Origin: Spirochaetaceae bacterium
GTDB lineage: Bacteria; Spirochaetota; Spirochaetia; DSM-2461
NCBI GenBank assembly: GCA_003246505.1
Contig: QKAI01000268.1
Location: 1 to 28,129 of the forward strand
DNA: 28,129 nt
Direction: 5' to 3'
The notes beneath the pieces are model-generated. The model did not search any database. It saw nothing but the letters and a program-made list of their open reading frames with translations, and was not told the origin of the DNA. Each line of letters begins with the position of its first letter. Within the stretch, counting starts at the first letter, position 1. Positions 12,554-28,126 of this stretch are shown in pieces. A program made the translations under genes and the position numbers.

Positions 12554-12565
12554 AGGCTCCTCGCG

Positions 12566-12593
12566 TGAAAATACTTTCATGAAAGTACTTTCA
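12566..12593. promoter_or_regulatory. Two abutting 14-bp operators, TGAAAATACTTTCA and TGAAAGTACTTTCA
   Basis: The second copy (12580-12593) is a perfect palindrome. Together they cover the predicted transcription start of the lacI-SBP-permease operon. Confidence 0.8.
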
Positions 12594-12599
12594 TGAAAC

Positions 12600-12628
12600 A
12601 TATTACCCTCACTTTCACCATCTGTCAA
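12600..12628 (-). promoter_or_regulatory. Sigma70 promoter TTGACA-N17-TAATAT of the lacI/CUT1 operon
   Basis: Consensus -35 at 12628-12623, 17-nt spacer, -10 at 12605-12600. Confidence 0.75.
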
Positions 12629-12662: not shown

Positions 12663-12699
12663 TTGTCCGTTTTGTATTAATGTTTTATTATCATACAAT
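12663..12699 (+). promoter_or_regulatory. Promoter TTGTCC-N17-TATTAT of the FadR-type gene, overlapped by operator ATTATCATACAAT (12687-12699)
   Basis: The operator is the reverse complement of ATTGTATGATAAT and overlaps the -10, consistent with autorepression. Confidence 0.7.
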
Positions 12700-12702
12700 G
12701 GG

Positions 12703-13422
12703 GTGGGTGACAGGGTGGCGAAAATCAGACAGAAGACAGTAGTCGAGCAGGTTATGGAGCAGATCAAGGGATTGATCGCTTCGGGCAAATACAAGCCGGG
12801 GGATAAACTGCCCACGGAACATGAACTGGCGGAAAAGTTCGGGATCGGCCGCTCTTCCATCCGGGAGGCTATAAAAATTTTCAATTACCTGGGCGTCCTC
12901 AAATCCAAGGCCGCCAAGGGAACCTTTCTTTCCGACCGGGCGAATATTTCCGCGGAAGCCCTCTCCTGGTCCATTCTCCTGGGAAAGGATGAACAGCAGG
13001 AGCTGATCGAAACCCGGGGGGCCATAGAGCTCTGGAGCATCATCACCCTTACCGGACTCTTTCAGAACAATCCGGTCAAGTGCACCCCCATACTGGATGA
13101 GCTGCAGGTACAGGTCGACCTGATGAAGCAGGGCATCGCCGACGGGGAGCTCGAGAAGCTGGTGGAAGCGGATTACGCCTTCCACAACATCATCGTGAAG
13201 AGCACGGAGAACAGCCTTTTCTACTCCATATACAAAACGCTCAAGTCGTTCATGTACGAAGAGATCATACAGTCCCAGAACGATTATACCGATCCTGGGA
13301 TGATCGTTTCCGAGCACCAGAGCATCATCAATACGATCCGGTCGGGGGATATCAACCAGTCCGTGAAGACATTCAGCTCCCACATAGAGAATATCGAGAA
13401 CCGCCTGAAGATCCGGGCCTAG
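12703..13422 (+). CDS. GntR-family, FadR-subfamily transcriptional regulator (wHTH + FCD)
   Basis: YKPGDKLPTEHELAEKFGIGRSSIREA...GKGTF-like AAKGTF; FCD motifs ADYAFHNII, NSLF and EH..II. The start could be GTG 12703 or GTG 12715. Confidence 0.92.
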   Translation: MGDRVAKIRQKTVVEQVMEQIKGLIASGKYKPGDKLPTEHELAEKFGIGRSSIREAIKIFNYLGVLKSKAAKGTFLSDRANISAEALSWSILLGKDEQQELIETRGAIELWSIITLTGLFQNNPVKCTPILDELQVQVDLMKQGIADGELEKLVEADYAFHNIIVKSTENSLFYSIYKTLKSFMYEEIIQSQNDYTDPGMIVSEHQSIINTIRSGDINQSVKTFSSHIENIENRLKIRA

Positions 13423-13430: not shown

Positions 13431-13871
13431 ATGATTCTGGTCAGCGCCTGCCTGGCGGGAATCGCCTGCCGCTACAACGGGTCAGGGGCGGTCGATGAAC
13501 TTGTCCTCGCCCTGGTGCGGGAGGGGAAGGCCCTGCCCCTGTGCCCGGAAATTCTGGGGGGACTCCCCGTTCCCCGTACCCCCTGCGAGATCGTCCGTCG
13601 AGGGGGCGACTCCCTTGCCATTGCCGAGGAAAACGGCACGGACCGTACGGGCGCCTTTCTAGAGGGGGCGAGGAAGACCGCGGAGATCTGCCGCATCGCC
13701 GGAATAGGGGAGGCGATTCTCAAGTCGGGAAGCCCCTCATGCGGTTCGGATTGGGTCTATGACGGAACATTCTCGGGAAAGCACGTCCCCGGCCGGGGCG
13801 TGACGTCGGATCTTCTTCTTAAGGAGGGGATCCGGGTTTACTCGGAAAAAGGATGGAGGGAGAAGAAGTAA
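13431..13871 (+). CDS. DUF523 / 2-thiouracil desulfurase (TudS/YbbK)-family protein
   Basis: ILVSACLAG..CRYNG, CPE..GGLP.PR, LKSGSPSCG, G.GVT..LL; GGAGG RBS overlapping the upstream stop. Confidence 0.85.
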   Translation: MILVSACLAGIACRYNGSGAVDELVLALVREGKALPLCPEILGGLPVPRTPCEIVRRGGDSLAIAEENGTDRTGAFLEGARKTAEICRIAGIGEAILKSGSPSCGSDWVYDGTFSGKHVPGRGVTSDLLLKEGIRVYSEKGWREKK

Positions 13872-13940: not shown

Positions 13941-14834
13941 TCAGATGCCCGTATGCTTCTTAATATAGGCCCGGGCGTTTTTCGCGTAGACGAAGGGATT
14001 GGCCTTGGCCGGATCCTGCTCCGCTTCCACCACCATCCAGCCTTCGTAATTATTCTCATCCAGAATGGCGAAAAGGGAGGGGAAGTCCACACTGCCGTCT
14101 CCGGGGACGGTGAAGACGCCCGCCCTGACCGCATCCAGGAAGGAGGAGTCCTTCGCCTTTACCTCGGCGAAGACATCCTTTCTCATATCCTTGAGATGCA
14201 CATGGCCGACGCGGGAAATATACTTTTTGAGAGCCGCCACGGGATCCTCTTCGGAGAAGGAGAAATGGCCCGAATCGAACAGGAGGTAGACCTTGTCCGG
14301 ATCGGTGTCGTTAAGGAAGCGGTCCACCTCTTCCATGGTCTGGATGCCCGTGCCCATGTGGTGGTGGAAGGCGAGCTTCATCCCCTCACTTTTTGCTATG
14401 GCTCCCAGTTTGTTCAGCCCGTCGCAGACCGCTTTGAATTCATCCTTCGTAAATACGGCCTTACCGGAAAATACGGATTTCTTCAGGTCCCCCTGGCAGG
14501 AGCGGGTCTGCTCGGAGGGGCCGATGACGTCGGCGCCCATGGCCTTGAGGAACATGAGCTGTTCCCTGAAATCCTTCTCCACTTCCCCGTAGGGCTTGCT
14601 GGCCAGGAAGGAGCTGTACCACTGGTTGCAGATCTGAATGCCCCGGACCTCCAGCATCGGCTTCAGCACCGCCGGATCCTTGGGGTATTTGCTTCCCACC
14701 TCCGAACCGGTGTAGCCGGCCAGAGCCATCTCGCTGACGCACTGCTGGAAGGAGTTCTCCTTCCCCAGGTCGGGCATGTCGTCGTTGGTCCATCCTATGG
14801 GAGCCATCGCCAGTTTGACCTTATTCTTATCCAT
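13941..14834 (-). CDS. iolE: Myo-inosose-2 dehydratase
   Basis: APIGWTNDDMPDLG; FHHHMGT; LLFDSGH; HVHLKD; FTVPGDG; WMVVEAEQDP. Confidence 0.95.
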   Translation of the reverse strand: MDKNKVKLAMAPIGWTNDDMPDLGKENSFQQCVSEMALAGYTGSEVGSKYPKDPAVLKPMLEVRGIQICNQWYSSFLASKPYGEVEKDFREQLMFLKAMGADVIGPSEQTRSCQGDLKKSVFSGKAVFTKDEFKAVCDGLNKLGAIAKSEGMKLAFHHHMGTGIQTMEEVDRFLNDTDPDKVYLLFDSGHFSFSEEDPVAALKKYISRVGHVHLKDMRKDVFAEVKAKDSSFLDAVRAGVFTVPGDGSVDFPSLFAILDENNYEGWMVVEAEQDPAKANPFVYAKNARAYIKKHTGI

Positions 14835-14899
14835 AATTATCCTCTTTCAGCCCCAGGTTATACCGGGGATATTTTCGTTGTGAACCGGACTCGGGAGAA

Positions 14900-16834
14900 T
14901 CAGTACTGCCGGGCCCTCTTGAGCTCTTCCTTCTGCTCCGCCGTCTTCTGGACAATGGTTTCGCTCTTCGCCACTTCCGCCTGACCGCAGCGCCAGAACC
15001 CCTTGTACCCGTCGGTCATGGTCTTGGGGAGAACCTTCACGTCTATGACCGTGGAGACGGTCTGCCTGGCCGCATCGGCCAGGGCCGCGCGGAGCTCCTC
15101 TTCGGTCTTGGCGGTGTAGGTCTTGCAGCCGTAGCCCTCGCCGATCTTGGCGAAGTCCACGTAGATCAGGTCCCCGTCCAGTTTGCCCGTTTTGCTGTTC
15201 CTATGGCGGAATTCGGTCCCGAAGGTGCCCTGTCCCCGGTCCATCTGCAGGTTGTTGATGCATCCGAACTCGGCGTTGTCGAAGACGACAAGGTTGATCT
15301 TCTTCCCCTCCTGGATGGAGGTGGCCAGTTCGGAATGGAGCATCATGAAGGATCCGTCCCCAAGATAGGTATACACCTCCCTGTCCGGTTCGGCCAGCTT
15401 GGCCCCCAAGGCGGCGCTGACTTCGTAACCCATGCAGGAGTAGCCGTATTCCATGTGGTAGGAGCGGAGGCTCTTCGCCCGGAATACCCTCTGTAGGTCC
15501 CCGGGGAGGGAACCGGAGGCGCCCACCACGATGGCGTTCTTATCCACAACCTCATCCAGAATTCCCAGAATCCGGGTCTGTGTCAGTTTCGTCCCCAGGG
15601 CTTTGCTGTACTCTTCCAGGGCCGATGTCAGGCCGTCCCGGATTTCGGGCACGAAGCCGGGGCCGGTGTATTCCAGGGAGAAGAGACGGTTAAGCTCCCT
15701 GTCCCATTCCTCCCTGGCCGCTTTGATCTCCGTGGTGTAGGCGGACTTGTAGCCCTCCTTCTTCAGGGTCTCCCGAATGGCGGCAAGGGCCGTCTTCGCA
15801 TCGCAGGTGACCCGCACCGCATCCATCTTGTAGGAGTCGAAGGAGGCCACATTGATGTTGATGAAATCCACGTTCGGGTTCTGGTAAAGCCACTTGGAGG
15901 CGGTGGTGAAGTCGGTGTAGCGGGTCCCTACCCCTATGACCAGGTCGGTCTCCTGTCCCAGGGTATTGGCGGCGAGACAGCCCGTGGTGCCCACGCCCCC
16001 CAGGTTCAGGGGATGGGAGTAGAGGGTGGCGCTCTTGCCCGCCTGGGTTTCGGCGTAGGGGATGTTGAACTCCTCGCAGAATTTGAGCATCTCCTCCGCC
16101 GCTTCGGAGTAGCGCACGCCCCCTCCGCAGATGAGCATGGGCTTTTTCTTGGATTTGATCATCCTTACCGCTTCCCGGACCATGGCGTCGGTGGGGGCGG
16201 TCCTTTCCAGGCGGTGAACCCGCTTCTGGAAGAAATATTCCGGATAGTCGTAGGCCTCGCCCTGCACGTCCTGGGGAAGGCAGACCGCCACGGCCCCCGT
16301 ATTGGCCGGATCGGTGAGGGTCCTCATGGCGCCGATCATGGCGGACATGAGCTGCTCCGGCCGGTTGATCCGGTCCCAGAATTTGCAGACCGGCCGGAAG
16401 GCGTCGTTGGTGGTGAGGGTCAGGTCGTGGAACTGCTCCATCTGCTGCAGAACCGGGTCGGGCTGGCGGGTGGCGTAGGTGTCGCCGGGCAGAAGAAGCA
16501 CGGGGATGCGGTTGGCCGTGGCCGTGGCCGCCGCGGTGACCATGTTGGCCGCGCCGGGGCCGACCGAGGAGGTGCAGGCGTAGATCTGCCTTCTGTGATT
16601 CTGCTTGGCGAATCCCATGGCCGCGGCGGCCATGCCCTGCTCGTTCCGTCCCTGGTGGACGATAAGATCGCCCGGATCCTCTTCCAGGGCCTGTCCCAGG
16701 CCCACCACGTTCCCGTGGCCGAAGATGGTGAAGATACCCTTGACGAATTTGTGCTCTTCCCCGTCGAATTCCAGATACTGCTGGTTCAGAAATTTCACCA
16801 GCGCCTGGGCTACGGTCATTCTTATGGTTTTCAT
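14900..16834 (-). CDS. iolD: 3D-(3,5/4)-trihydroxycyclohexane-1,2-dione acylhydrolase (ThDP-dependent)
   Basis: [10 protein letters not shown]; IFGHGNVVG; RNEQGMA; [11 protein letters not shown]; PDPVLQQ; [11 protein letters not shown]; ThDP motif GDGSFMM...N. Confidence 0.96.
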
Positions 16835-17646
16835 TATTTAACTTCCTTTCCGTGTTTTAATTCGGGCCAGATGACAACATCCGGCTCCTTCAGCCATTCA
16901 TGCTCTTTGACGAAATACCTGGTGGTGGGGAGCCACCGGTCGTTCTCCAGGTGGGGGATCATCCAGATGTAGTACATGGCGTATCCCGCCCCGGCCACCT
17001 GGGAGTGGGTTCGGTCCGGCACGATGAGGCAGGTATCCCCGTTCTTGACGAAATGGGGATCCTCATCGATCAGGGAGACGCCGAAGCCGCAGTCGGGAAA
17101 GTGGCGGTAGTGGTAGATCTCCGGCTGGGGATGATGGTGGGGCGGGTAGCTGGACCATTTCCCCGGGTGGTTGATCACCTCACCCAGAACCATGTTGGAT
17201 TCGGGAGCGATCACCCCGTCGAAGACGGTCCTGACCGTTCTCTTCGCCGTATCGTTGAGGATCCCCCCGCCGAAAATATCGGAGCGGATATCCTCCTGCC
17301 GGTAAAACCGGGGAGCGAACTCCCGGGGATTCTTCTTTTTTTCCACCGCGATTTCCGAGTCCTCCGCCGCAATGATGGTCACGGGAATATTCCGGGGGAC
17401 ATGGAGGACCACGGGGTTTTCCTCAAAGCAGGACCGGCGGACCGCCTCTTCCGTCTTCCCGTCCCATTTGAACTGAACCCGGCCGCCCATGAGGAGCCAG
17501 GCCCTCTCCTTGCCCTCCTGGCAGAGCCAGGTCTCGCCCTTCTTCAGCCGGAGAATTCCGAAATCCAGGAGCATTTCCGAATGGATGCCCTCCTCTTCGG
17601 TGATTACCGTATATCCGGTTTCCCATATCTGATTCTTTATAATCAC
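16834..17646 (-). CDS. iolB: 5-deoxy-glucuronate isomerase (KduI/IolB family)
   Basis: GEV...[16 protein letters not shown]; YAMYYIW; GGAGG RBS with GTG start; TAATG overlap with iolD. Confidence 0.88.
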
Positions 17647-17672
17647 TTAAGCCTCCCTCGATCGGTGGTTTT

Positions 17673-17701
17673 ATTATATTGTAGTATTGTCTGATAATCA
17701 A
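17673..17701 (-). promoter_or_regulatory. Promoter TTGATT-N17-TATAAT of iolB-iolD-iolE, with operator ATTGTCTGATAAT (17686-17698) in the spacer/-35
   Basis: Consensus -10 at 17678-17673, -35 at 17701-17696; the operator matches the copies at 12687, 23541, 28058 and 28114. Confidence 0.8.
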
Positions 17702-17739
17702 GTGTTATTTTTCAAAAATCCGTCCCCGGAGGGGCACTG

Positions 17740-18762
17740 TCAGGTGGACTCCCGGGGGGACAGGTGGGGGGCGATGCTGATCCGGGTCCTGGGCAGCTCC
17801 TCCCCGTTCCTTTTCTTCTGGATCTGATGGATCAGGCGCTGGCAGGAGAGGTGGGCCAGCTCATCCCGGGGCTGGTGAACCGAGGTCAGCCCGGGGTTGC
17901 TGTAACGGGCCAGCTCGCTGTCGTCGTATCCCGCCACGGCGATGTCCCCGGGAATGGCGACCCCCCTGTCCTCCAGGGCCCGCATGGCCCCCAGGGCCAT
18001 GAGATCGTTGCAGCCGAAGAGGGAGTCATACCGGCCGATGCCGTCCCCCAGGCCGGACAGGGCCTCCTTGGCCGATTCGAAGGTGGAGTCGCTGTAGAGC
18101 CGTTCCACCCTGACCCCCGCATCGTCCATCACTTCGCAGAAGCCCTTCTCCCTCAGGCGGAATTCAAGGTGCTCCTGGGTCTTCGCCAGCAGGAGGGGAT
18201 TCCTCCGCCCCTTCTGCAGGAAATGGGAGGCCACCTGCCTTCCCCCCTCCCTGTGGTCGGTGAAGATCACCTCCTGGTTTTTCGTGGCCTCGTCCGGGGG
18301 GTAGTGGAGGAAGACGGAGGGGACCCCATGGAGATTGAGGTACTCGATGCTCTCCTTCTTCAGATGCTCGATGAGAATGAGAAACCCGTCCACCTTGTTG
18401 CGGGATACGAGGCGGATGATGTTGTTGCCCCGGTCTTCCTGATAGGTCTGGTGGGTGATGATGAGGTCCAGATCGGCCTCTTCCAGGGTCTTGCGCAGGC
18501 TGTTGAGGAGCATGCCGTGGTAGACGTTGACGCTGACCATATGGTAGTTCTCCGGCAGGACGATGGCCACCGTACCCACCTGGCTGGTGATCATGCTCCG
18601 GGCGCCCGCATTGAATTCAAAACCCAGGTCACCGGCAATGCGGTTGATTCTCTCCCTCGTCTTGTAAGCCACCAGGGGACTGTTGTTCAGACTCCTTGAT
18701 ACGGTGGCGAAACTGACTCCGGCGATTTCCGCAATGTCCTTAATGGTGACCTGGCTGCCCAT
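17740..18762 (-). CDS. LacI-family repressor, last gene of the importer-iolG operon
   Basis: VTIKDIAEIAGVSFATVSRSLN; hinge region FNAGARSM; IAVAGYDDS...LTSVHQP. Confidence 0.93.
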   Translation of the reverse strand: MGSQVTIKDIAEIAGVSFATVSRSLNNSPLVAYKTRERINRIAGDLGFEFNAGARSMITSQVGTVAIVLPENYHMVSVNVYHGMLLNSLRKTLEEADLDLIITHQTYQEDRGNNIIRLVSRNKVDGFLILIEHLKKESIEYLNLHGVPSVFLHYPPDEATKNQEVIFTDHREGGRQVASHFLQKGRRNPLLLAKTQEHLEFRLREKGFCEVMDDAGVRVERLYSDSTFESAKEALSGLGDGIGRYDSLFGCNDLMALGAMRALEDRGVAIPGDIAVAGYDDSELARYSNPGLTSVHQPRDELAHLSCQRLIHQIQKKRNGEELPRTRISIAPHLSPREST

Positions 18763-18771
18763 CTCTCTCTG

Positions 18772-19785
18772 TCAAAACCTTAACTGTTTGTTTAATTCGA
18801 AGGATTCCTTGCACTTGTAGGCGATCTCCGAAACCCGGGTTCCGTCGTAGACCGTGACCCCGGGCTGCCGTCCTTCCAGGATACAATACACAAATTCCTG
18901 AATCTCGTTAATATAGGAGGAACCGAATCTCTCCAGAAAGTTCTCGCTGCACTCCCGGCGGACGCCCCCGTTGTCCAGGATCTCCACCAGATTCTTCTGG
19001 GGGACCGAGGCGATGCGCAGGATGCCCTTCGTCCCGATGATCTCCGTCTCCACGTTGTATCCGTGGGGGGCGGTCCTCCCCGCGAAGAGGAAGACCATGG
19101 CGTCGTTTCCGAACTGCATGAGGCAGGAGACGTTGTCCCCGTCCTTGTACTGTCCGAATTCGGGATGGGCGTAGCATCCGCCCAGGGCGGTGACGGAGAC
19201 GGGCTCCGAGTTCAGGAACCAGCGGGCCAGATCGATGTCGTGGACCGCCATGTCCAGGAACTGCCCCCCCGAATGGCCGGCGAAGGCGATGGCCCCGTCT
19301 ATGAACTTCTCCGGGTCCTGGCTGTAGGAACGGAAGAGAACGGGCTTCCCGATCTCCCCGGCCATCACCTTTTTATGGGCGTACATGTAGGATTCGTCGA
19401 ACCGGCGCATGAACCCCAGCATGAAGACCCTGTCCCCGTGGGCTTCCACCGCCTTCTCCGCCTCCTTGCACTCCTCCACGGTCACCCCCAGGGGCTTCTC
19501 GGAAAAGACGTGCTTTCCCGCGGCCAGGGCGGCGGCGATCTGCTTCGTGTGCAGGCCGGAGGGGGAGGCGAGGCAGACCGCGTCCAGCTCCTCCAGGGCG
19601 ATCATCTCTTCGAAGCTGGAGAACCGGTGCTTCACCCCCAGCCTGTCCGCGGTTCTGTTGAGCAGATCCCCGTTCAGGTCGCAGAGGGCGGTCAGCTCGG
19701 CATGCATGATCTTGGTGGCGATATTCTCCGCATGGGCCAGGCCCAGCCGGCCCAGTCCCACCGATCCGATCCTGATCGTTCTCAT
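18772..19785 (-). CDS. iolG: Inositol 2-dehydrogenase (Gfo/Idh/MocA family)
   Basis: GLGRLG Rossmann motif; GKHVFSEKP; GFMRRFD; DMAVHDID. True start MRTIRIG at 19785; the ORF-track extension to 20427 is an off-frame reading of the permease gene. Isomer specificity (myo/scyllo/chiro) cannot be read from sequence. Confidence 0.8.
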   Translation of the reverse strand: MRTIRIGSVGLGRLGLAHAENIATKIMHAELTALCDLNGDLLNRTADRLGVKHRFSSFEEMIALEELDAVCLASPSGLHTKQIAAALAAGKHVFSEKPLGVTVEECKEAEKAVEAHGDRVFMLGFMRRFDESYMYAHKKVMAGEIGKPVLFRSYSQDPEKFIDGAIAFAGHSGGQFLDMAVHDIDLARWFLNSEPVSVTALGGCYAHPEFGQYKDGDNVSCLMQFGNDAMVFLFAGRTAPHGYNVETEIIGTKGILRIASVPQKNLVEILDNGGVRRECSENFLERFGSSYINEIQEFVYCILEGRQPGVTVYDGTRVSEIAYKCKESFELNKQLRF

Positions 19786-19790
19786 GGCGA

Positions 19791-20810
19791 TTAACCCTTC
19801 TTGGCGTTCTTGCGCATATCGATGATAACGGCTACCACGATGATCACACCTTCGGTGACCTGCTGCCAGTAGGCGTCGACTCCCAGAAGGGTCAGGCCGT
19901 TTCTCATGACCGAGAGAACCAGGGCCCCCACGAAGGCGCCCCAGATGGTTCCGATTCCCCCGGAATGGCTGGTACCGCCGATGGTGGTGGCGGCGATGGC
20001 GGTCAGCTCGTAACCGGTGGCGGCGCCGGGATGGACCGATCCTACCCGTCCGGCGAAAACGATGGCCGCCAGACCGGCGAGGAGCCCCGAGTAGGCGTAG
20101 ATGGCGATGAGGTTCCGGCCCACGTTGACCCCGGACACCTCCGCCGCCTTGATGTTGCCCCCGATGGCGTAGACGCTCTTGCCGAAGCGGGTCATGTCCA
20201 GGAGGACGTAGCTGACGCCGATCATGAGAAAGTAGATCAGAACGGGGATGGGGAGCCAGCCGAAGAGCTTGCCCCCCAGGACGGTCAGGGAGTCGGTGAG
20301 GGTGCTCACGGGCTTGCCGTCCGAGTAGATCAGGGCCATGCCCCGGGCCACGGTCATCATGCCCAGGGTGGCGATGAAGGCGGGGATGTTGGTTTTGGCT
20401 ATCAGGGCTCCTGAGATACCCCCGCACAGGGCGCCCACGGCCAGGGCGGCCAGGATGGGGACGATGACCGGCATGACGGGCAGGTTGGGAAAGAATTTGC
20501 CCGTGGCGTCGGCGGTCTGGGCCAGGGACGCGGCGATGACGCCGGAGAGGGCCAGAACGGAGCCGACGGAGAGGTCGATTCCCTTGGAAATGATAACGAA
20601 GGTGAGTCCCAGGGCCATGATTCCGAAAATGGAGGTCTGGGTCAGGACGTTAAAAAGGTTGGAGCGGCTCAAAAAGGCCGGCTCCAGAATGCTGATGCCT
20701 ATGATCATGATGAACAGAACGAAGACGATACCGTACTTCTGCAGGATCTGCTGGGTCTTCTGGCTCCGCTCTTTTTTGCCGGGCTGGGCTTTTTCCGCAA
20801 TGGTTGACAT
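19791..20810 (-). CDS. CUT2 ABC transporter permease (RbsC-like), probably for inositol
   Basis: GIDLSVGS; IPAFIATLGMM; RFGKSVYAIGGN..AA.VSG; YELTAIAA..IGGTS..GG.G. Confidence 0.92.
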   Translation of the reverse strand: MSTIAEKAQPGKKERSQKTQQILQKYGIVFVLFIMIIGISILEPAFLSRSNLFNVLTQTSIFGIMALGLTFVIISKGIDLSVGSVLALSGVIAASLAQTADATGKFFPNLPVMPVIVPILAALAVGALCGGISGALIAKTNIPAFIATLGMMTVARGMALIYSDGKPVSTLTDSLTVLGGKLFGWLPIPVLIYFLMIGVSYVLLDMTRFGKSVYAIGGNIKAAEVSGVNVGRNLIAIYAYSGLLAGLAAIVFAGRVGSVHPGAATGYELTAIAATTIGGTSHSGGIGTIWGAFVGALVLSVMRNGLTLLGVDAYWQQVTEGVIIVVAVIIDMRKNAKKG

Positions 20811-20814
20811 TGTT

Positions 20815-22329
20815 TTACTCCTCTCCTACAGCTTTACCCGTGGCGTAGGACATTAATTGTTCTTGGGTAAGATCGGGCGTATTGTCCACGACGGCCGTGA
20901 CACGGCCCTCGTGCATGACCATTATCCGGTCACTCATGCCCATGACTTCCGGCAGTTCCGAGGAAATCATGACGATCGATTTCCCCTCCCCGGCCAGACG
21001 GGTGATCAGCCTGTGAATCTCCGACTTCGCCCCCACGTCGATGCCCCTCGTCGGCTCATCGAGAAAGAGAATGTCCGGATTGGTCATAAGCCACCGGGCG
21101 ACCAGAACCTTCTGCTGGTTTCCTCCGGAGAGGTTCTGCACCTTCTGCATCAGGCTGGGGGTCTTCACCTGAATCTTCTTGACGTAATCGTCGCACTCGC
21201 TCTTAAGCGATTTGTAACGGATCAGGCCCACCCTGTTCAGGTATTTGGGGATATTGGTGATAGCCATGTTCAACCGCACCGAGAGCATGGGGAAGATTCC
21301 CGACATGCGCCGGTCCTCGGTGAGCAGAGCCATATGCCTGGCGATGGCGTCCCGGGGGGAGTTGATGGTCACCTCCTCCCCGTCGATGAGAATCTGGCCG
21401 GAAACCTTGGACCGGATGCCGAAGATCGTCTCTATGACCTCCGTCCTACCCGAACCGATAAGGCCGGCCACTCCCAGGATTTCGCCCCTTCTCACGTTAA
21501 AGGAAACGTCCCTGAAGAGCCGCTGGTGGGTCAGGTTGCGGACTTCCAGTTTCACTTCCCCTATCTCGCAGGGGACCTTGGGGAACATCTCGTCCACGTT
21601 GCGGCCCACCATCATGTTGATGAGCCTGTCCACGATGAGCTTGTCCGTGTCCTCCACGCCGATATAGGTCCCGTCCCGGTAGACGGTGATCCTGTCGGTA
21701 ATCTCATAAACCTCATCCAGCTTATGGGAGATGTATATGATGCTCTTGCCCTGCGCCTTGAGCTTGCGCATGATGGTGAAGAGCTGCTTGACTTCCTTAT
21801 CTGTCAGTGCCGATGTGGGCTCGTCCATGATGATCAGTTTGGAATCGTAGGAGATGGCCTTGGCGATCTCGATCATCTGCATCTTGGCTACGGTCAGCTG
21901 AGCCATCTCTGTCCGGGGATCCTCATCCAGATCGATCTCCTTCAGGACTTCGATGCTCATATCATACATTTTTTTATGGTCCACGAGACCGAACTTGTTC
22001 AAAGGCTCTCTTCCGAGCCAGATATTTTCCATGATAGGTCTGTGAAGTATGGGGCTCAATTCCTGATGTATCATGGAAATGCCCATATGAAGAGCCTGGG
22101 ACGTATCGTAATTCTCCCGAACCTCGCCATCGTACATTATGGTTCCCGATGTGGGACTGTGTACGCCGGCCAGACAGTTCATAAGAGTCGATTTGCCCGC
22201 TCCGTTTTCTCCCATAAGCGCATGGATCTCTCCCTGTTTCACCTTAAGTTCAACACCTTTGAGAGCCTTGACACCGGGGAAGTTCTTTACAATATCCTGC
22301 ATCTGCAGGAGATAGTTTTCCTCAGCCAT
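20815..22329 (-). CDS. CUT2 ABC transporter ATP-binding protein with two NBDs (RbsA/MglA-like)
   Basis: GENGAGKST; IIMDEPT; LSGGNQQK; LFLDEPTRGIDVGAK. Start MAEENYLL at 22329 behind GGAGA; the extension to 22389 crosses hairpins. Confidence 0.94.
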   Translation of the reverse strand: MAEENYLLQMQDIVKNFPGVKALKGVELKVKQGEIHALMGENGAGKSTLMNCLAGVHSPTSGTIMYDGEVRENYDTSQALHMGISMIHQELSPILHRPIMENIWLGREPLNKFGLVDHKKMYDMSIEVLKEIDLDEDPRTEMAQLTVAKMQMIEIAKAISYDSKLIIMDEPTSALTDKEVKQLFTIMRKLKAQGKSIIYISHKLDEVYEITDRITVYRDGTYIGVEDTDKLIVDRLINMMVGRNVDEMFPKVPCEIGEVKLEVRNLTHQRLFRDVSFNVRRGEILGVAGLIGSGRTEVIETIFGIRSKVSGQILIDGEEVTINSPRDAIARHMALLTEDRRMSGIFPMLSVRLNMAITNIPKYLNRVGLIRYKSLKSECDDYVKKIQVKTPSLMQKVQNLSGGNQQKVLVARWLMTNPDILFLDEPTRGIDVGAKSEIHRLITRLAGEGKSIVMISSELPEVMGMSDRIMVMHEGRVTAVVDNTPDLTQEQLMSYATGKAVGEE

Positions 22330-22342
22330 GTTTTCTCCGATA

Positions 22343-22430
22343 ACCGGAGCGGGAGAATTCCCGCTCCGGTGGGTAACGCGGATTCCCATCTATCCTATGG
22401 TTCCCCGGAGGGAACCCCTATGGGGAATCC
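22343..22430 (-). other. Two stem-loops between the SBP and ATPase genes
   Basis: Perfect 12-bp stem ACCGGAGCGGGA/TCCCGCTCCGGT (22343-22370). Nested hairpin 22380-22430 with outer GGATTCCC/GGGAATCC and inner GGTTCCC/GGGAACC arms, giving a C(UCCG)G loop on the mRNA strand. Confidence 0.7.
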
Positions 22431-22438
22431 TTTGATTT

Positions 22439-23389
22439 CTACTGGTAATCGGCCAGATTTTCCGGGGTAATGAGAACGAAGGGGATCCATACGAGGGAAA
22501 CGACCTGCTCGCCCTTGAGAACCTTGTGGATCAGCTCTGCGGAACCCTTGCCCTGACCTACGGCGTCCTGAAGGACCGTAGCCGCCAGAGAGCCGTTTCC
22601 TACGGCGACCTTAGCATCGGGGATGGCGTCAACGCCCATGACGGGGATGTCGGTCCGGCCGGCGGCCTTGAGGGCTTCCACGGCACCCAGGGCCATTTCG
22701 TCGTTATTGGCGCAGATACCCTTAAGGTCGGAGCCGTATGCGGTGAGCCAGTTCTCCGTAATGGTCATGCCCTGGTCTCTCTGCCAGTTGCCGGTTTCCT
22801 TGGCAAGGATCTTGATGCCGGGGAACTTGGCCTTGGCGGTAACTTCGTTACCCTCGGTTCTCTTCAGGGCGCCTTCGTTGTCGAGCTTGCCCATGAGGAT
22901 GGCCACGCCGCCCTTACCGTCAAGAAGCTTGCCCATGTACTCCATCTGCTGGGTACCGGCAATGATCTCCTGGGAACCGACGTAATAGACGTTGGCGGGG
23001 AGTTCCTTCTCCGCATAGGGGTTTCTGTTGACGAAACAGAGGGGAACGTTGGATTCGGCGGCAGCCTTAACAATGGGACCCATGGCGCTCGTGTCAACGG
23101 GAACCACGATAAGGGCATCAATTTTCTGGGCGAGAAGGGTGTTGACCAGATCCTGCTGGCGGATAACGTCCTCCTGCGCGTCCTGAAGAACCAGTTCTAC
23201 ATTGGCGACGCCGGCAAAATACTCCTTGGCCGCATCCATAACGTAGGTCTGAAAGGTGTCGTTAAAGTTGTTACATACGTAACCAACTTTGAAACTGTCC
23301 TTGGCCCCTCCCTTATCCGCCGATCCGTTGGCAAAAGCCACGGTAACGGCCAGAAGGGCCAGCAGTGTTACGAACAATACCTTTTTCAT
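22439..23389 (-). CDS. CUT2 sugar-binding protein (RbsB-like), probably inositol-binding
   Basis: GGAGGT RBS, then MKKVLFVTLLALLAVTVAFANG; DAQED..RQ; IDALIVVPVD; YVGS; NNDEMALGA; GVDA; ATVLQD. Confidence 0.9.
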   Translation of the reverse strand: MKKVLFVTLLALLAVTVAFANGSADKGGAKDSFKVGYVCNNFNDTFQTYVMDAAKEYFAGVANVELVLQDAQEDVIRQQDLVNTLLAQKIDALIVVPVDTSAMGPIVKAAAESNVPLCFVNRNPYAEKELPANVYYVGSQEIIAGTQQMEYMGKLLDGKGGVAILMGKLDNEGALKRTEGNEVTAKAKFPGIKILAKETGNWQRDQGMTITENWLTAYGSDLKGICANNDEMALGAVEALKAAGRTDIPVMGVDAIPDAKVAVGNGSLAATVLQDAVGQGKGSAELIHKVLKGEQVVSLVWIPFVLITPENLADYQ

Positions 23390-23419
23390 AAAATACCTCC
23401 ATAGATTTCGCTTGCATAA

Positions 23420-23435
23420 TTGCAAACGTTTACAA
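23420..23435. promoter_or_regulatory. LacI-type operator TTGCAAACGTTTACAA (proximal)
   Basis: 16-bp near-perfect palindrome with a central CG, at the predicted transcription start. Confidence 0.8.
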
Positions 23436-23442
23436 TAGTGTT

Positions 23443-23472
23443 ATTATCCTCCCTGTTTCCGGAATCTGTCAA
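23443..23472 (-). promoter_or_regulatory. Promoter TTGACA-N18-GATAAT of the importer-iolG-lacI operon
   Basis: -35 at 23472-23467, -10 at 23448-23443. Confidence 0.65.
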
Positions 23473-23540
23473 CAAAAAACTAAATAAAATTAAGTAAGAT
23501 CATTTAAAGTATTATATAATAAACAAATATAGCTAGTCAG

Positions 23541-23553
23541 ATTGTCTGATAAA
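23541..23553. promoter_or_regulatory. FadR-type operator ATTGTCTGATAAA
   Basis: The 12-bp core is identical to the iolB and transaldolase copies; it is adjacent to a possible second promoter (CTGACT-N18-TATAAT, 23540-23511). Confidence 0.7.
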
Positions 23554-23620
23554 AGAATGTCGGATTGTAAGATTTTTTTTAAAAAATAGGTAACGAAATA
23601 TCGATAAAAAAAGCTCTAAA

Positions 23621-23634
23621 TACAAACGTTTACA
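23621..23634. promoter_or_regulatory. Auxiliary LacI-type operator TACAAACGTTTACA
   Basis: Shares CAAACGTTTACA with the proximal site and lies exactly 200 bp from it. Confidence 0.65.
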
Positions 23635-23740
23635 GAATTCCTCCTCCCCGGGCTGCCTAGGGAATAATAACAGGGACGGGATCATGGGCATGTCCCGCAG
23701 AACAGGGGTGAGGCGGTTGGTGTTTTGTGGTGATAAAGAG

Positions 23741-23787
23741 GGAACCGGTCCGGGTGTTGCGATTGGATAAGGTCCCGGACCGGTTCC
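23741..23787. repeat. Perfect 14-bp inverted repeat with a 19-nt loop
   Basis: GGAACCGGTCCGGG (23741-23754) / CCCGGACCGGTTCC (23774-23787). Confidence 0.75.
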
Positions 23788-23959
23788 GAAGCGATTGAAT
23801 TATATGGAAACTATTTTTACTTCTTTCTGCTGATCCAGAGGGAGGCGTCCGAAAAGACCCCGGGGGTTTTGTCCGCGGGGATGTTCTCTCTGAGGCTCCC
23901 TCTCTTCTGTCTTTCACTTTTCCGGCGCTGCCGCCGTTCTCTAGTTTTTCTCAAATTCA

Positions 23960-25555
23960 TCATAGGGGCATGTTCCCGTGTTTCTTGGAGGGCCTGTCCT
24001 CCCGCTTGTCCGCGATGATCTCCAGGGACCGGATCAGCTCCTTCCTGGCCGATTCGGGGGAGATCACGTCGTCCACGATTCCCAGGGAGGCGGAGGAGAA
24101 GGGGTTCATGAATTTCCTCTGGTACTCGTGCATCTTGATTTCCTTGATCAGGTCGTGATCCTTGGCGGACTGGATCTCATTCCTGAAGATGATGTTGGCC
24201 GCCCCGGAGGCGCCCATGACGGCGATCTCCGCGATGGGCAGGGTCAGGACCCGGTCGTAGCCCAGGGCCCGGGAGGCCATGCCGATGTAGGCGCCCCCGT
24301 AGGCCTTTCTGAGGACCAGGGCGATCTTGGGCACCGTGGCCTCCGCAATGGCGTAGAGCAGCTTGGCCCCGTGGCGTATGATGCCCCCGTACTCCTGCTC
24401 CGTCCCGGGCATGTAGCCGGGCACGTCCACCAGGGAGATCACCGGGATGGAGAAGGCGTCGCAGAAGCGGACGAACCGGGCCGCCTTGTCCGAGGAGTCC
24501 CGGTCCAGGGCCCCGGCGAAGACCATGGGCTGGTTCCCGATGATCCCCACGGAACGGCCGGCCAAGCGGGCGAAGCCCACCACCATGCTCCGGGCGAAGT
24601 CCCTGTGGACCTCCAGGAAACTCTCCCCGTCGAAGAGAAGGGCGATGATCTCCCTCACGTCGTAGGCCCGGGTGGACTCCCCGGGGATGATCCTGAGGAT
24701 CTCCCCGGTCTCCCTGTTCGGGTCGTCGGTGCACTCCAGCCGGGGAGGGGCCTCCCGGTTGGAGGAGGGCAGGTAGGAGAGCAGTCTCTTCACGAGCCGG
24801 AAGCACTCCTCCTCGCTGGCGCAGTGGAAGTGGACGTTGCCGCTTTTGCTGGCATGGGCCAGGGCCCCGCCCAGGTCCTCGTGGCTAACCTCTTCCCCGG
24901 TCACCGCCTTGATGACCTCCGGCCCGGTGATGTACATATGGCTGGTTTTGTCTATCATGAAGACGAAGTCGGTCAGGGCCGGGGAGTAGGCCGCGCCCCC
25001 CGCGCAGGGCCCCATGATCAGGCTGATCTGGGGGATGACCCCCGAGGCCAGGATGTTCTCCCGGAAAATGCTGCCGTAGCCCTCCAGGGACATGACCCCC
25101 TCCTGGATCCGGGCCCCCCCGGAATCGTTGATCTGGATGAAGGGTTTCCCCGTCTTGAGGGCCAGGCGCTGGGTGGCGGCGATCTTGGAGGCGTGCTGCT
25201 CCCCCAGGGAGCCCCCCAGGACGGTGAAGTCCTGGGAGGAGAGCCAGATCTGCCTCCCCTCGAGGAGGGCGCTGCCCGTGATGACCCCGTCCCCGGATAT
25301 CTTCTTGCTGTCCATGCCGAAGTCGTCGATGCGGCTCAGCTCGTAGGGATGGTTCTCCACGAAGCTGCCCTCGTCGGTGAGGAGCCGGATCCTTTCCCGG
25401 GCCGTATGCTTGCCCTTGGCCTTCTGCCTGGCCTGGCGGTCCTCCCCGCCCCCGGCCAGCATGGCCTTGCGCATCGTCTCAAGAAGCTTCAGGCTCTCCC
25501 TGTGGCTGTAGGGCAGTTCGGGGGACGGGTCAGTTCCCTTTTCTGACGTGCTCAT
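23960..25555 (-). CDS. Acyl-CoA carboxyltransferase subunit (PccB / (methyl)malonyl-CoA decarboxylase alpha / transcarboxylase 12S family)
   Basis: GKHTARERI; GDGVITG; QDFTVLGGSLGE; DSGGARIQEG; GPCAGGAAYSPALTDF; DVPGYMPG; RKAYGGAY; C-terminal KKHGNMPL. GAGGAG RBS lies inside the upstream gene (26-nt overlap). Confidence 0.92.
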   Translation of the reverse strand: MSTSEKGTDPSPELPYSHRESLKLLETMRKAMLAGGGEDRQARQKAKGKHTARERIRLLTDEGSFVENHPYELSRIDDFGMDSKKISGDGVITGSALLEGRQIWLSSQDFTVLGGSLGEQHASKIAATQRLALKTGKPFIQINDSGGARIQEGVMSLEGYGSIFRENILASGVIPQISLIMGPCAGGAAYSPALTDFVFMIDKTSHMYITGPEVIKAVTGEEVSHEDLGGALAHASKSGNVHFHCASEEECFRLVKRLLSYLPSSNREAPPRLECTDDPNRETGEILRIIPGESTRAYDVREIIALLFDGESFLEVHRDFARSMVVGFARLAGRSVGIIGNQPMVFAGALDRDSSDKAARFVRFCDAFSIPVISLVDVPGYMPGTEQEYGGIIRHGAKLLYAIAEATVPKIALVLRKAYGGAYIGMASRALGYDRVLTLPIAEIAVMGASGAANIIFRNEIQSAKDHDLIKEIKMHEYQRKFMNPFSSASLGIVDDVISPESARKELIRSLEIIADKREDRPSKKHGNMPL

Positions 25556-26912
25556 CGAATAACTCCTCGTCCGAGGGCTGTCTGTTCGCGATGGGAGAGG
25601 ACACCCAGGTCGTGTTGATCAGGTGCTTCCAGGTGATGTTCTCGCTGGAAATGTTCCCTCCCCAGGTCCCGCAGCCCAGGGTCAGGGTGGTGGGCATGCC
25701 GTTGGTCCAGGAACCGCTGTTGGCCAGGCAGTGGGGCTGGTTCACCATGACCCGGGACACCTTCACCTGTTCCGCCAGCTGGAGGATCCGCTCCCTCCTG
25801 GTGGTGTGGATGCCGCAGGAGTGGCCCGCCCCGGAATAGGCGGTGATTCTGTTGACCATCCGCACGGCCTCGTTGAAATCGCTCCATTTGTACAGGGCCA
25901 TGACCACGGAGAGCTTCTCCCCGCTGAAGAGGTAGCCCTCTCCCGCGCCGGTCTCCTCCACGAAGAAGAAGCTTTTCCCTTCGGGGAGAGCGATGCCGGC
26001 GATGCCCGCGATCTTCGGGGCCGGCTGGGCCACCACGTCCCGGTTGAGGGTATGCCCGTCGGGCCACAGGGCCTTCTCCAGCTTACCCTTCTCCTCGGCG
26101 CTGCAGAGGTAGCCCCCTTCCGCCTCCAGGGCCTTCACCAGATCCCCGTAGATGGTGTCCTGGGCCAGGCAGGAGTTCTCCGCGGAGCAGCTGGTGGCCA
26201 TGTCGAAGGTCTTGGACCGCTTGATTTTGTCGGCCACCACCTTCATGTCCTGGGTATCGTCCACGATGGTCACCGCGTTGCCCGCGCCCACCCCGTAGGC
26301 GGGGGTGCCGCTGGAGTAGGCCGTCTTCACAAGGCCGGCGCCGCCCGTGGCCAGGATCAGGTCGCACTTGGCCATGATCTCCTGGGAATTCTCCATGGTG
26401 ACCTGGTCCACGTGGATGATCAGGTCCTCCGGGTAGCCCAGCTTCTTCAGGACCCCTCTCATCTTGTTGACCACCATCTCGTTCGTTTTTACGGAGCGGG
26501 GATGGGGGGCCAGGATAATGGCGTTCCTGCCCTTGAGGGCGCTCATGGACTTGAGGACCGGGGTCGCCTCGTTGTTGGTGGTGGGGACCATGGCCCCGAT
26601 GACGCCCACCGGCTTGGCGATCTTGATCAGCCCCAGGGCGGGATCCTCTTCGATGATGCCGGCGGACTTCTTGCCCTTCATGTCGAACCATCCGGCCCTG
26701 ACCTTGTTCATCATCTTGCCGTGCTTGCTCTCGAAGCAGCCCATGCGGGACTCCTCCACGGCCATGGTCGCCAGTTCGGTGACGAAGGGCTCCTGAACGC
26801 ACACCCAGGCGATGGTCTGGCAGATCTCGTCCACCCTCTCCTGTGAGAGGAACTCTATCTCTTTCTGGGCCTTCCGGGCCCGGTCTATCAATCCGTTTAC
26901 GTAATCCGACAT
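25530..26912 (-). CDS. CoA-acylating aldehyde dehydrogenase (AdhE-N/EutE/SauS-like)
   Basis: KPVGVIG..VPTTN; KGRNAII.APHP; LATGG.GLVK.AYSSG.PAYGVGAGN; catalytic Cys in ATSCSAEN; GEKLS; GHSCGIH; TLGCGTWGGN. Confidence 0.92.
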   Translation of the reverse strand: MSDYVNGLIDRARKAQKEIEFLSQERVDEICQTIAWVCVQEPFVTELATMAVEESRMGCFESKHGKMMNKVRAGWFDMKGKKSAGIIEEDPALGLIKIAKPVGVIGAMVPTTNNEATPVLKSMSALKGRNAIILAPHPRSVKTNEMVVNKMRGVLKKLGYPEDLIIHVDQVTMENSQEIMAKCDLILATGGAGLVKTAYSSGTPAYGVGAGNAVTIVDDTQDMKVVADKIKRSKTFDMATSCSAENSCLAQDTIYGDLVKALEAEGGYLCSAEEKGKLEKALWPDGHTLNRDVVAQPAPKIAGIAGIALPEGKSFFFVEETGAGEGYLFSGEKLSVVMALYKWSDFNEAVRMVNRITAYSGAGHSCGIHTTRRERILQLAEQVKVSRVMVNQPHCLANSGSWTNGMPTTLTLGCGTWGGNISSENITWKHLINTTWVSSPIANRQPSDEELFDEHVRKGN

Positions 26913-26933
26913 TTTTCCTATCCTTTCTCTATC

Positions 26934-28013
26934 TTACTTCTTATCCGGGTTGGGCAGCATGAAATCTTTGATGATCCCCAGAAGCTCATGGTAGCCGTCG
27001 ATGAATCCCCTGAGGGTCCGGGCGGTGGCGCCGTAAAAATCGAATTCCTCGGGCTTCATCGTGTAGGCCCCGTAGGCCCTGTTGAAATCGGGGAACTTAT
27101 CCTGCAGCTCCTTGAGAACGGCCGGATCGACGGGCCTGTCTATGGTCACTTCCACGGGAACGTCGCTGCCGTTGAACTTCTTCTGCCAGTCGCAGGGTAT
27201 GGTCTGAACGATATCGTCCCCTATGATCTGGGACCAGTGGAGATGGTTTCTGTAGGCGGCGGAGAGAAGCCGGGTCCGGAAACCCTTTTCCTTATATATT
27301 TTGTAGGCGTTCTTGAAGGCGGCCACTCCGGCCCAGTCCAGGACGCCGGGGGTCGTCACGATGCCCTGCTTGCCCGCCACGACCTTGAGCCAGTCATCCA
27401 GACGTCCGACCATGATCGTGCAGACCGGGGTCATTTTTGAAACGTCCTTTCCTTCCGCCTCCCTTCTCTTCAGGCCCCGTTCCACCGCTTCCGCCACGGC
27501 CACAGCCTGGGGTACGGTGAAACAGACGGTGGCGTTGATGTTGACGCCCCGGTAGGTGGCTTCTTCGAAGGCTTTGATTCCCGCGGCGGTGGTGGGCATT
27601 TTGACCATCATGTTAGGGGCCAGGGTACTGAACTTGACCGCCTGCTCGGCCATGGCGCCGGCGTTGCGGTAGAGCTGGGCATTGGTCTGGATGGATATAC
27701 GGCCCTTGAGTCCCTTCTCCCTGTCAAAGACGGGTTTGAGGATTTCCGCTCCCTTGACGGCCATCTCTTCGATGAGCTTCCAGGCGACTTCCACTTCCCC
27801 CGCTTCGGGCATCTCCGCGATAATTTCCTTGATTCTGCCTTCCCAGAGGGGCATCTCCTTCTTAAGTACGTTGAGAACGATTACCGGATTGGTGGTGGCT
27901 CCCGTGGCGCCGTGGCCTATGGAATATTCCAGTTCCTCCACGGAACAGGAATCATTCCACACCTCCATATTGCATATGGAAACGGATTTCCTAATAGGAC
28001 TCATATCACCCAT
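26934..28013 (-). CDS. Transaldolase-family protein with a non-canonical active-site signature
   Basis: WNDS; GATTNP; Schiff-base Lys in MVKMPTT; INATVCF; MVGRLDDW; AAYRN; AAGGAG RBS. Confidence 0.88.
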   Translation of the reverse strand: MGDMSPIRKSVSICNMEVWNDSCSVEELEYSIGHGATGATTNPVIVLNVLKKEMPLWEGRIKEIIAEMPEAGEVEVAWKLIEEMAVKGAEILKPVFDREKGLKGRISIQTNAQLYRNAGAMAEQAVKFSTLAPNMMVKMPTTAAGIKAFEEATYRGVNINATVCFTVPQAVAVAEAVERGLKRREAEGKDVSKMTPVCTIMVGRLDDWLKVVAGKQGIVTTPGVLDWAGVAAFKNAYKIYKEKGFRTRLLSAAYRNHLHWSQIIGDDIVQTIPCDWQKKFNGSDVPVEVTIDRPVDPAVLKELQDKFPDFNRAYGAYTMKPEEFDFYGATARTLRGFIDGYHELLGIIKDFMLPNPDKK

Positions 28014-28057: not shown

Positions 28058-28070
28058 ATTGTATGATAAT
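28058..28070. promoter_or_regulatory. FadR-type operator ATTGTATGATAAT upstream of the transaldolase operon
   Basis: Exact reverse complement of the site at the FadR gene's own promoter. Confidence 0.75.
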
Positions 28071-28113: not shown

Positions 28114-28126
28114 ATTATCAGACAAT
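28114..28126. promoter_or_regulatory. FadR-type operator ATTATCAGACAAT, second copy
   Basis: Exact reverse complement of the iolB site ATTGTCTGATAAT. Confidence 0.75.

Follow-up and report, generated by a model that had tools for sequence, protein, structure and literature searches.

The question raised by this locus is how a bacterium that encodes the upper half of myo-inositol catabolism might complete the pathway when the usual genes for the lower half are not found beside it. The locus lies in the window, by which is meant here the whole 28-kb contig (28,129 nucleotides) of a metagenome-assembled genome (MAG) of a Spirochaetaceae bacterium, an assembly of 552 contigs that is 81% complete. 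By family match IolG, IolE, IolD and IolB are present, and these four enzymes together yield 5-dehydro-2-deoxy-D-gluconate (DKG), IolB converting the aldose 5-deoxyglucuronate to the ketose DKG. The window holds no PfkB kinase, no class II aldolase and no methylmalonate-semialdehyde dehydrogenase (MMSDH, IolA)-type dehydrogenase, in agreement with the original prediction that IolC, IolJ and IolA are absent from it. Upstream of a sugar importer and the iol genes, on the same minus strand, lies a three-gene operon for a transaldolase-like TAL_FSA protein (28013..26934; 359 aa; Pfam TAL_FSA, 145 bits), an acylating aldehyde dehydrogenase, or ALDH (26912..25530; 460 aa; best NCBIfam match SauS), and a 12S/MmdA/PccB-type carboxyltransferase (25555..23960; 531 aa; Pfam Carboxyl_trans, 600 bits). 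A gap of exactly 21 nt separates the first two genes and the last two overlap by exactly 26 nt, so that the gene set and spacing first described for this locus are borne out by gene calls, family scores and exact coordinates. The reading favoured here, and considered rather likely, is that the locus specifies a variant of myo-inositol catabolism with a different lower half, in which this trio replaces IolC, IolJ and IolA. The trio probably finishes the pathway without a kinase, and the end of the pathway may harvest energy from the final decarboxylation.

The chemistry of DKG lends itself to such a route. Counted from C6, DKG shares the D-threo configuration of fructose and bears a distal carboxylate, a configuration that follows from the cleavage of DKG 6-phosphate by IolJ, a homologue of fructose-bisphosphate aldolase, and its dihydroxyacetone end is unphosphorylated, as transaldolase donors require. 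In the first of three proposed steps, the transaldolase-like enzyme would form a Schiff base at Lys138 and cleave DKG between C3 and C4, releasing malonate semialdehyde and passing the dihydroxyacetone unit to an aldehyde acceptor, most likely glyceraldehyde 3-phosphate, to give fructose 6-phosphate; IolC and IolJ would both be replaced. In the second step, the SauS/SucD-like dehydrogenase would convert malonate semialdehyde to malonyl-CoA, a product expected because acylating dehydrogenases of this class form the thioester without decarboxylation. In the third step, the 12S-type carboxyltransferase would transfer the free carboxyl group from malonyl-CoA onto protein-bound biotin, so that acetyl-CoA remains, and together with the second step would replace IolA. 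The biotin would here probably be that of the OadA biotinyl domain, encoded elsewhere, and the carboxybiotin would be either decarboxylated by OadB with export of Na+ or used for transfer to pyruvate. With a pyrophosphate (PPi)-dependent phosphofructokinase the ATP of the IolC reaction would be saved, and the energy of decarboxylation could be conserved.

Relative to the canonical iol pathway of Bacillus subtilis and Salmonella, the variant would keep the IolG/IolE/IolD/IolB upper half to DKG, the malonate semialdehyde intermediate and the predicted end products (triose or hexose phosphate, acetyl-CoA and CO2). It would differ in that one transaldolase-like enzyme stands in for IolC and IolJ, and a dehydrogenase with a carboxyltransferase for IolA, whereby DKG is predicted to be cleaved unphosphorylated and decarboxylation to become a separate biotin-dependent step.

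The distribution of the transaldolase-like gene connects it to inositol. The family is carried by at least 579 species genomes in at least 10 phyla, including Spirochaetota, Chloroflexota, Acidobacteriota, Verrucomicrobiota, Actinomycetota and Bacteroidota as well as Calditrichota, Fusobacteriota, Myxococcota, Thermodesulfobacteriota and Pseudomonadota, with 58-84% identity across phyla. Among loci inspected individually, the gene was inside or beside an iol cluster in five of five; for instance, the Mahella operon has the order iolG-iolD-iolE-transaldolase-iolB-IolA, and that of another genome is LacI-iolB-transaldolase-iolD-ALDH. Unbiased clustering of every open reading frame within 7 kb of the transaldolase gene in 84 loci returned IolD (44 loci), IolG-like proteins (43), IolB (42), IolE (39), LacI (28) and IolA above the TIGR01722 cut-off (28) as the most frequent partner families, at least one of IolB, IolD and IolE being present in 48 loci. 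The commonest immediate neighbours on the same strand were IolB upstream and IolD downstream (19 loci each), and for loci with no iolD nearby, iolD was found elsewhere in 8 of 10 genomes. Cleavage of DKG between C3 and C4 is suggested because IolB, which makes DKG, is kept beside the transaldolase and IolA, which uses malonate semialdehyde, often comes right after it, and a single reaction links the two compounds.

The same genomes are mostly without the kinase gene. In the MAG, the model for iolC (5-dehydro-2-deoxygluconokinase, TIGR04382) finds its best match at 114 bits, where the cut-off is 300, and that for IolA (CoA-acylating malonate/methylmalonate-semialdehyde dehydrogenase, TIGR01722) at 24.6 bits, where it is 448.5. 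The closest relative with the same gene order, which has a complete 5.6-Mb chromosome, carries iolD and has no iolC above the cut-off. For iolC and IolA, the whole-genome searches agree with what the window had suggested. Across 50 carrier genomes iolD was present in 41-42 and iolC in 8, and true iolC occurred in only 4 of the 84 transaldolase loci, all of them proteobacterial. In a sample of 200 Spirochaetota genomes there were eight others with iolD, and the five of these that were tested all have iolC (in one case broken up at contig ends) and all lack the transaldolase. A sample of 200 Chloroflexota genomes was searched for iolC at its cut-off and for the transaldolase at E values up to 1e-80; iolD was found in 33, iolC in 8 (all with iolD) and the transaldolase in 13 (6 with iolD). 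In neither sample did any genome hold both iolC and the transaldolase. These counts suggest that inositol clusters of different phyla have the transaldolase-like gene as a conserved member, mostly in genomes without iolC. The predicted co-occurrence with iol genes and anti-correlation with iolC therefore hold as a strong tendency and not as an absolute rule, and strict mutual exclusion was rejected, since 8 of the 50 carriers have both genes.

Within the window, the trio is tied to the iol genes by a shared operator. With at most one mismatch, the 11-bp sequence TTGTCTGATAA occurs five times, each time in a promoter region: twice before the trio (28059-28069 and 28115-28125), and once each before the importer (23542-23552), iolB (17687-17697) and a gene for a GntR/FCD regulator (12688-12698). 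At up to two mismatches there are 10 matches where 3.75 are expected, and none of 100 shuffled sequences gave 10 or more. In a relative whose transaldolase is 84% identical (L017) the operator is found at the equivalent four places (4 matches, 0.18 expected), including two sites before the transaldolase orthologue and one before iolB. A further relative, with a transaldolase 75% identical (L015), has a single copy before the transaldolase gene, and its GntR/FCD orthologue lies between the carboxyltransferase and the iol genes. The claim that the trio carries the same operator as the iol genes is upheld by the shuffles and by the conservation in L017. On this evidence of sequence and conservation the trio is part of the inositol regulon, because the operator is common to the trio, the importer, iolB and the GntR gene and is kept in relatives.

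The GntR/FCD protein (12703-13422, plus strand) is the candidate regulator of the whole regulon. As a repressor binding TTGTCTGATAA, it would act on the trio and iolBDE, along with the importer-iolG operon and the regulator gene itself. The promoter region of the importer (23421..23634) combines the operator with two LacI-type palindromes (23421-23434 and 23621-23634) and two promoter-like sites, an arrangement at which the LacI-family regulator encoded within the cluster (18762..17740, minus strand) would exert an added control.

The shared operator also bears on the suggestion that the trio is unrelated to inositol, and serves instead as a pentose-phosphate transaldolase or a sulfosugar/aldehyde module while a non-orthologous kinase and aldolase act elsewhere in the genome. 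This is very improbable. The MAG is incomplete, the genome has several PfkB kinases of unassigned specificity and the best family match of the dehydrogenase is the sulfoacetaldehyde enzyme SauS, all of which such a proposal could draw on. It would have to account, however, for a conserved operator common to the trio, iolBDE and the importer, for the presence of the transaldolase family inside iol operons of many phyla, and for scores far under every curated transaldolase model; in addition, the SauS score is itself under its cut-off and no sulfonate genes are found in the window. The more specific idea of a housekeeping transaldolase was considered and rejected, given its scores to curated models, its places in operons and the operator.

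The transaldolase-like protein passes no curated cut-off for a transaldolase or for fructose-6-phosphate aldolase (FSA). Its best NCBIfam transaldolase model gives 114.7 bits against a cut-off of 367, orthologues from other phyla (L034 and L011) are likewise below cut-off at 107-123 bits to curated transaldolase models, and the nearest solved structure is matched at only 71 bits. The AlphaFold model of the 359-aa protein (pLDDT 93.5) is a transaldolase TIM barrel of the long type, with TM scores of 0.80-0.82 to the long-type structures 3r5e, 3clm and 7oey (0.82 to the Corynebacterium glutamicum and Neisseria gonorrhoeae transaldolases, at ~21% identity) and, normalised to the query, of ~0.45 to short-type transaldolases. 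The Schiff-base lysine is kept as Lys138 (TalB Lys132), which aligns with the lysine of IKIPAT or IKIAAT in 3r5e, 3hjz and 3igx and is invariant in the family alignment. Gln109 occupies the position of TalB Glu96, where it aligns with the glutamate of GRVSIEVD in 3r5e, and this glutamine is invariant in 12 family members. The position of TalB Phe178, which is the catalytic tyrosine in FSA, is an invariant methionine. Two arginines of the TalB phosphate site, mapped by eye, are conserved and are invariant across the family.

These residues bring in a second explanation for the first step, in which an FSA-type aldolase splits DKG into free dihydroxyacetone and malonate semialdehyde, a separate kinase follows, and the rest proceeds as proposed. 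Here, the glutamine at the Glu96 position is as in fructose-6-phosphate aldolase, the Protein Data Bank (PDB) holds engineered E96Q/F178Y variants of TalB that were reportedly made to shift TalB towards aldolase activity, and the gene context fits an aldolase as well as it fits a transferase. The methionine at the position of the FSA catalytic tyrosine and a fold of the long transaldolase type, rather than the short FSA type, argue the other way. Furthermore, no gene for a dihydroxyacetone kinase recurs among the 84 loci, and Dak1 is absent from 28 of the 50 carriers, among them the closest relative with its complete chromosome. With the missing kinases, transfer of dihydroxyacetone is favoured over its release, a preference tempered by the Gln/Met pair, and the aldolase is considered unlikely.

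The predicted DKG transaldolase has a precedent in logic in the 6-deoxy-6-sulfofructose transaldolase of the sulfo-TAL pathway (BmSF-TAL, 8bc3), which likewise cleaves an unphosphorylated ketose with a distal anion and passes the three-carbon unit to glyceraldehyde 3-phosphate. BmSF-TAL is of the short FSA/TalC type and acts on a sulfonate, whereas the protein of the window is of the long type and is predicted to act on a carboxylate, and the two are not close relatives. Direct homology was rejected on a match to 8bc3 of 33 bits over ~75 residues and on the TM scores to short types. The analogy drawn in the original prediction with the sulfoquinovose route thus stands for the reaction and not for the relationship of the enzymes.

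What becomes of the released malonate semialdehyde is suggested by the dehydrogenases that accompany the transaldolase. Of the transaldolase loci, 28 contain IolA and 9 contain the acylating dehydrogenase, and no locus contains both. Directly after the transaldolase, each occurs in 7 loci. Orthologues of the dehydrogenase at 45% identity or more are present in 22 of the 50 transaldolase genomes, and IolA is in the transaldolase locus of none of the 22. Malonate semialdehyde is the substrate of IolA, and given this exclusion, IolA and the acylating dehydrogenase look like alternative outlets for that one shared intermediate. The sequence of the ALDH is in keeping with such a role. Its best NCBIfam match is SauS (NF047625) at 515.9 bits, under the cut-off of 600, the solved structure nearest to it is that of the acylating succinate-semialdehyde dehydrogenase 8cei (324 bits), and its membership of the acylating class is evident from strong matches to the N-terminal domains of AdhE and to EutE-type enzymes. 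SauS and SucD, the nearest characterised relatives, act on anionic aldehydes, namely sulfoacetaldehyde and succinate semialdehyde, the former being the sulfonate isostere of malonate semialdehyde. Like SauS and SucD (8cei), the enzyme would catch a short aldehyde with a distal anion as a CoA thioester, here in an inositol context.

The carboxyltransferase scores 727 bits against the mmdA model TIGR01117, below the cut-off of 999. Among solved structures it comes closest to 1x0u, 1vrg and the 12S subunit 1on3, the matches to 1x0u and 1on3 spanning the full length. Several spirochaete genomes have kept the dehydrogenase-carboxyltransferase gene pair, once apart from the transaldolase, and the 26-nt overlap recurs in a relative (L010). 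No other carboxyltransferase of the MmdA/PccB type was found in the MAG. In a Pelolinea MAG of the Anaerolineae (L034), a four-gene operon for the carboxyltransferase, a 109-aa protein, a biotin carrier and OadB is divergent from iolB-iolD-transaldolase-dehydrogenase, and in another member of the Anaerolineae (L036) OadB lies close past the carboxyltransferase, beside iol genes. The OAD_beta family is found in six of seven carriers of the dehydrogenase-type route, versus 2 of 14 control genomes. In the closest complete relative, OadA, with a 5S-type domain and a C-terminal biotinyl domain, shares an operon with OadB; the OadA orthologue of the MAG (93% identical, with the biotinyl domain) is cut by a contig end exactly where the relative has OadB.

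It is also conceivable that the carboxyltransferase acts on another substrate, for example methylmalonyl-CoA, or works as a carboxylase, with malonyl-CoA going to fatty-acid synthesis or elsewhere. Its best scores are indeed to models for the alpha subunit of methylmalonyl-CoA decarboxylase and the beta subunit of propionyl-CoA carboxylase, partner subunits are absent from the operon, and in three of the nine dehydrogenase-type loci no carboxyltransferase is within reach. This explanation is quite unlikely in view of the overlap with the dehydrogenase gene that spirochaete genomes have kept, the operator common to the carboxyltransferase operon and the iol genes, and the L034 orthologue that is paired, with its carrier and pump, with inositol genes; for a lipid fate, the catabolic flux from inositol would be expected to lie far above the demand of lipid synthesis. 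The enzyme has the motif GGAY-Ile, the last position of which is aspartate in propionyl-specific PccB, and this counts against the explanation as a lead only.

Decarboxylation of malonyl-CoA on biotin would follow known systems. In the Na+-translocating methylmalonyl-CoA decarboxylase MmdABCD of Veillonella and Propionigenium and in the biotin-dependent malonate decarboxylase of Malonomonas rubra, a 12S/MmdA-type subunit carries out the transfer to biotin and an OadB-type subunit the Na+-pumping decarboxylation. The L034 locus resembles MmdABCD in having a complete four-gene set, there beside iol genes, whereas the window has only the alpha subunit, in a catabolic operon where an aldehyde dehydrogenase would feed it, and this subunit, which scores below the mmdA cut-off, is predicted to borrow the carrier and pump of OadA-OadB. 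For the energy yield, a PPi-dependent phosphofructokinase is present in the genome (856 bits against a cut-off of 588), and the energy argument of the original prediction is consistent with the genome content in this respect, as it is in the presence of OadA with its biotinyl domain and in the OadB expected past the contig end. The full proposal, a kinase-free and energy-conserving route with a DKG transaldolase, capture of malonyl-CoA and a hybrid Na+-pumping malonyl-CoA decarboxylase built on OadA-OadB, is put forward tentatively, its probability being somewhat below even. The three-step interpretation as such gains support from comparative genomics, that is, from the iol neighbours, the exclusion between IolA and the dehydrogenase, and the pump context in L034 and L036.

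Several observations weigh against the proposed pathway. The MAG is incomplete, so that the absence of iolC and iolA rests mainly on the close relative. The presence of iolC in 8 of the 50 carriers, and in the same cluster in the four proteobacterial loci, means that the transaldolase is not always a replacement. Among the Chloroflexota, 7 of the 13 carriers are without iolD at the threshold used, and these tend to hold less similar copies of the transaldolase; moreover, 18 of the 33 genomes with iolD have neither iolC nor the transaldolase at the thresholds applied. These Chloroflexota genomes are MAGs. Glutamine in place of the catalytic glutamate, together with methionine in place of the FSA tyrosine, leaves the acid/base chemistry unexplained. 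A search of the MAG for OAD_beta gave no match, most likely because the contig breaks after OadA, and the window has neither a biotin carrier nor a pump subunit, so that the carboxyltransferase step depends on subunits encoded elsewhere. Lastly, the sequencing runs found to contain this sequence are DNA metagenomes, with no RNA run among them.

In the literature, inositol degraders are defined partly by iolC in surveys (PMC9430895), and a large genomic survey of inositol clusters treats iolC as a core gene and leaves the transaldolase unmentioned. Gut organisms that metabolise inositol without iolC or iolJ have been reported, the gap being filled by guesses (PMC13311982, PMC13617567); a laying-hen study, for instance, describes Megamonas with iolG, iolE, iolD and iolB and without iolC or iolJ. 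For Dysosmobacter welbionis, in which iolJ is reported to be missing, a proposed conversion of inositol to butyrate relies on class II aldolases of a generic kind together with an oxoacid dehydrogenase complex (PMC13311982), and in the conversion of inositol to propionate by Anaerostipes, a 3-oxoacid CoA-transferase is reported to make 3-oxopropionyl-CoA (PMC8355322). Both routes are also anaerobic variants that diverge from the textbook after malonate semialdehyde (3-oxopropionate), and neither paper mentions a transaldolase, malonyl-CoA or a carboxyltransferase (PMC8355322, PMC13311982). A full-text literature search, with subscription journals outside its coverage, found no description of a route joining a transaldolase with iol genes or DKG, and the papers that name both a transaldolase and an iol gene are unrelated to such a route. 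Likewise, no description of a Na+-pumping decarboxylase coupled to inositol catabolism was found in the literature search. One enzyme activity, that of the DKG transaldolase, is probably new, and the union of a malonyl-CoA-forming aldehyde dehydrogenase with biotin-dependent decarboxylation of malonyl-CoA would be a new combination of two known activities.

The remaining genes of the regulon follow the trio on the minus strand. Past the stop codon of the carboxyltransferase gene, a 14-nt perfect inverted repeat without a T-run (23741..23787) possibly marks the end of the transcription unit; a terminator scan found no canonical terminator after this gene. An intergenic region of 534 nt then separates it from the genes for the sugar-binding protein (23425..22439), ATPase (22389..20815) and permease (20810..19791) of the ABC importer, which are followed by an IolG-like oxidoreductase of the GFO/IDH/MocA family, the candidate inositol dehydrogenase (19785..18772), and by the LacI-family regulator. 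The iolB-iolD-iolE operon (13941..17646) encodes IolB (17646..16834; Pfam KduI/IolB, 165 bits; TIGR04378, 93 bits against a cut-off of 205), IolD (16834..14900; TIGR04377, 939 bits against 715) and IolE (14834..13941; TIGR04379, 410 bits against 290). Among named organisms, Oceanispirochaeta and other Spirochaetia have the closest homologues, and the same DNA is found in hydrothermal-vent and marine metagenomes.

Between the GntR/FCD regulator gene and iolE lies a gene of the 2-thiouracil desulfurase family (13431-13871, plus strand), which seems to share a transcript with the regulator gene. A second sugar ABC importer (8322-12628, minus strand) lies directly upstream of the inositol regulon, comprising two BPD_transp_1 permeases, an SBP_bac_8 binding protein and a LacI regulator of its own. 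Further out, a membrane regulator of the 7TMR-DISM/LuxR type (5099-6679, plus strand) lies upstream of a 486-aa protein (6766-8226, plus strand) with a weak MACPF/perforin match (E 3e-4, slightly under the Pfam cut-off), and two consecutive open reading frames at 1-2070 (plus strand), the first of 236 aa and open towards the start of the contig, the second of 442 aa, match no Pfam family.

A number of related loci were noted alongside the iol-linked family. In Propionivibrio and other Proteobacteria (L094, L076, L046 and L058), the transaldolase gene heads an importer-iolG operon, and the clusters also hold IolA and a full-length IolC with its C-terminal aldolase-like domain, so that both routes seem to coexist. 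The 18 Chloroflexota genomes with iolD and neither of the two genes hint at a third solution to DKG cleavage or at more divergent versions; several of them have PfkB kinases scoring 210-295 bits, just below the iolC cut-off. In one locus (L013:11089-14419), the iolD call extends into an aldehyde-dehydrogenase domain, giving an 822-aa product that is followed by a 301-aa Aldedh fragment, which represents either an IolD-IolA fusion or an assembly frameshift. The Spirochaetaceae genome itself carries a second, more divergent transaldolase-like gene (G000 contig C300:3321-4370; L120:1022-2071, minus strand), the 349-aa product of which is 28% identical to the protein of the window and scores at most 42 bits to any transaldolase model. 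The gene beside it encodes a TRAP transporter DctM subunit, an association suggestive of a further sugar-acid role for the protein class. Sister clades at 39-46% identity lie outside iol clusters: in one case (L123:4500-11547) two tandem TAL_FSA genes occur with a Zn-alcohol dehydrogenase, a LarA-N protein, an HpcH/HpaI aldolase, a 2-hydroxyacid dehydrogenase and a DHDPS-like gene, and in the other (L124:862-4254) the TAL_FSA gene adjoins an IolG-like oxidoreductase. Clustering at 50% gave 321 representatives at E values up to 1e-30, so that a broader, as yet unstudied set of transaldolase-like enzymes seems to exist.

Among the major pools of carbon and phosphorus that derive from plants are inositol and its precursor phytate, and genome annotation makes use of the iol pathway as a textbook route. 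If the proposed pathway is true, it would add a new activity to the well-studied transaldolase family, and pathway predictions would be corrected in hundreds of species from at least 10 phyla. Metabolic engineering would also gain a short path from inositol to malonyl-CoA. For an anaerobe, the route would save one ATP by way of the PPi-dependent phosphofructokinase and gain sodium-motive force for each inositol, and the branch with the dehydrogenase and carboxyltransferase would represent a new example of decarboxylation-driven energy conservation. Beyond inositol, the clade and its sister clades in other sugar-acid loci would constitute an unrecognised class of non-phosphorylative transaldolases.

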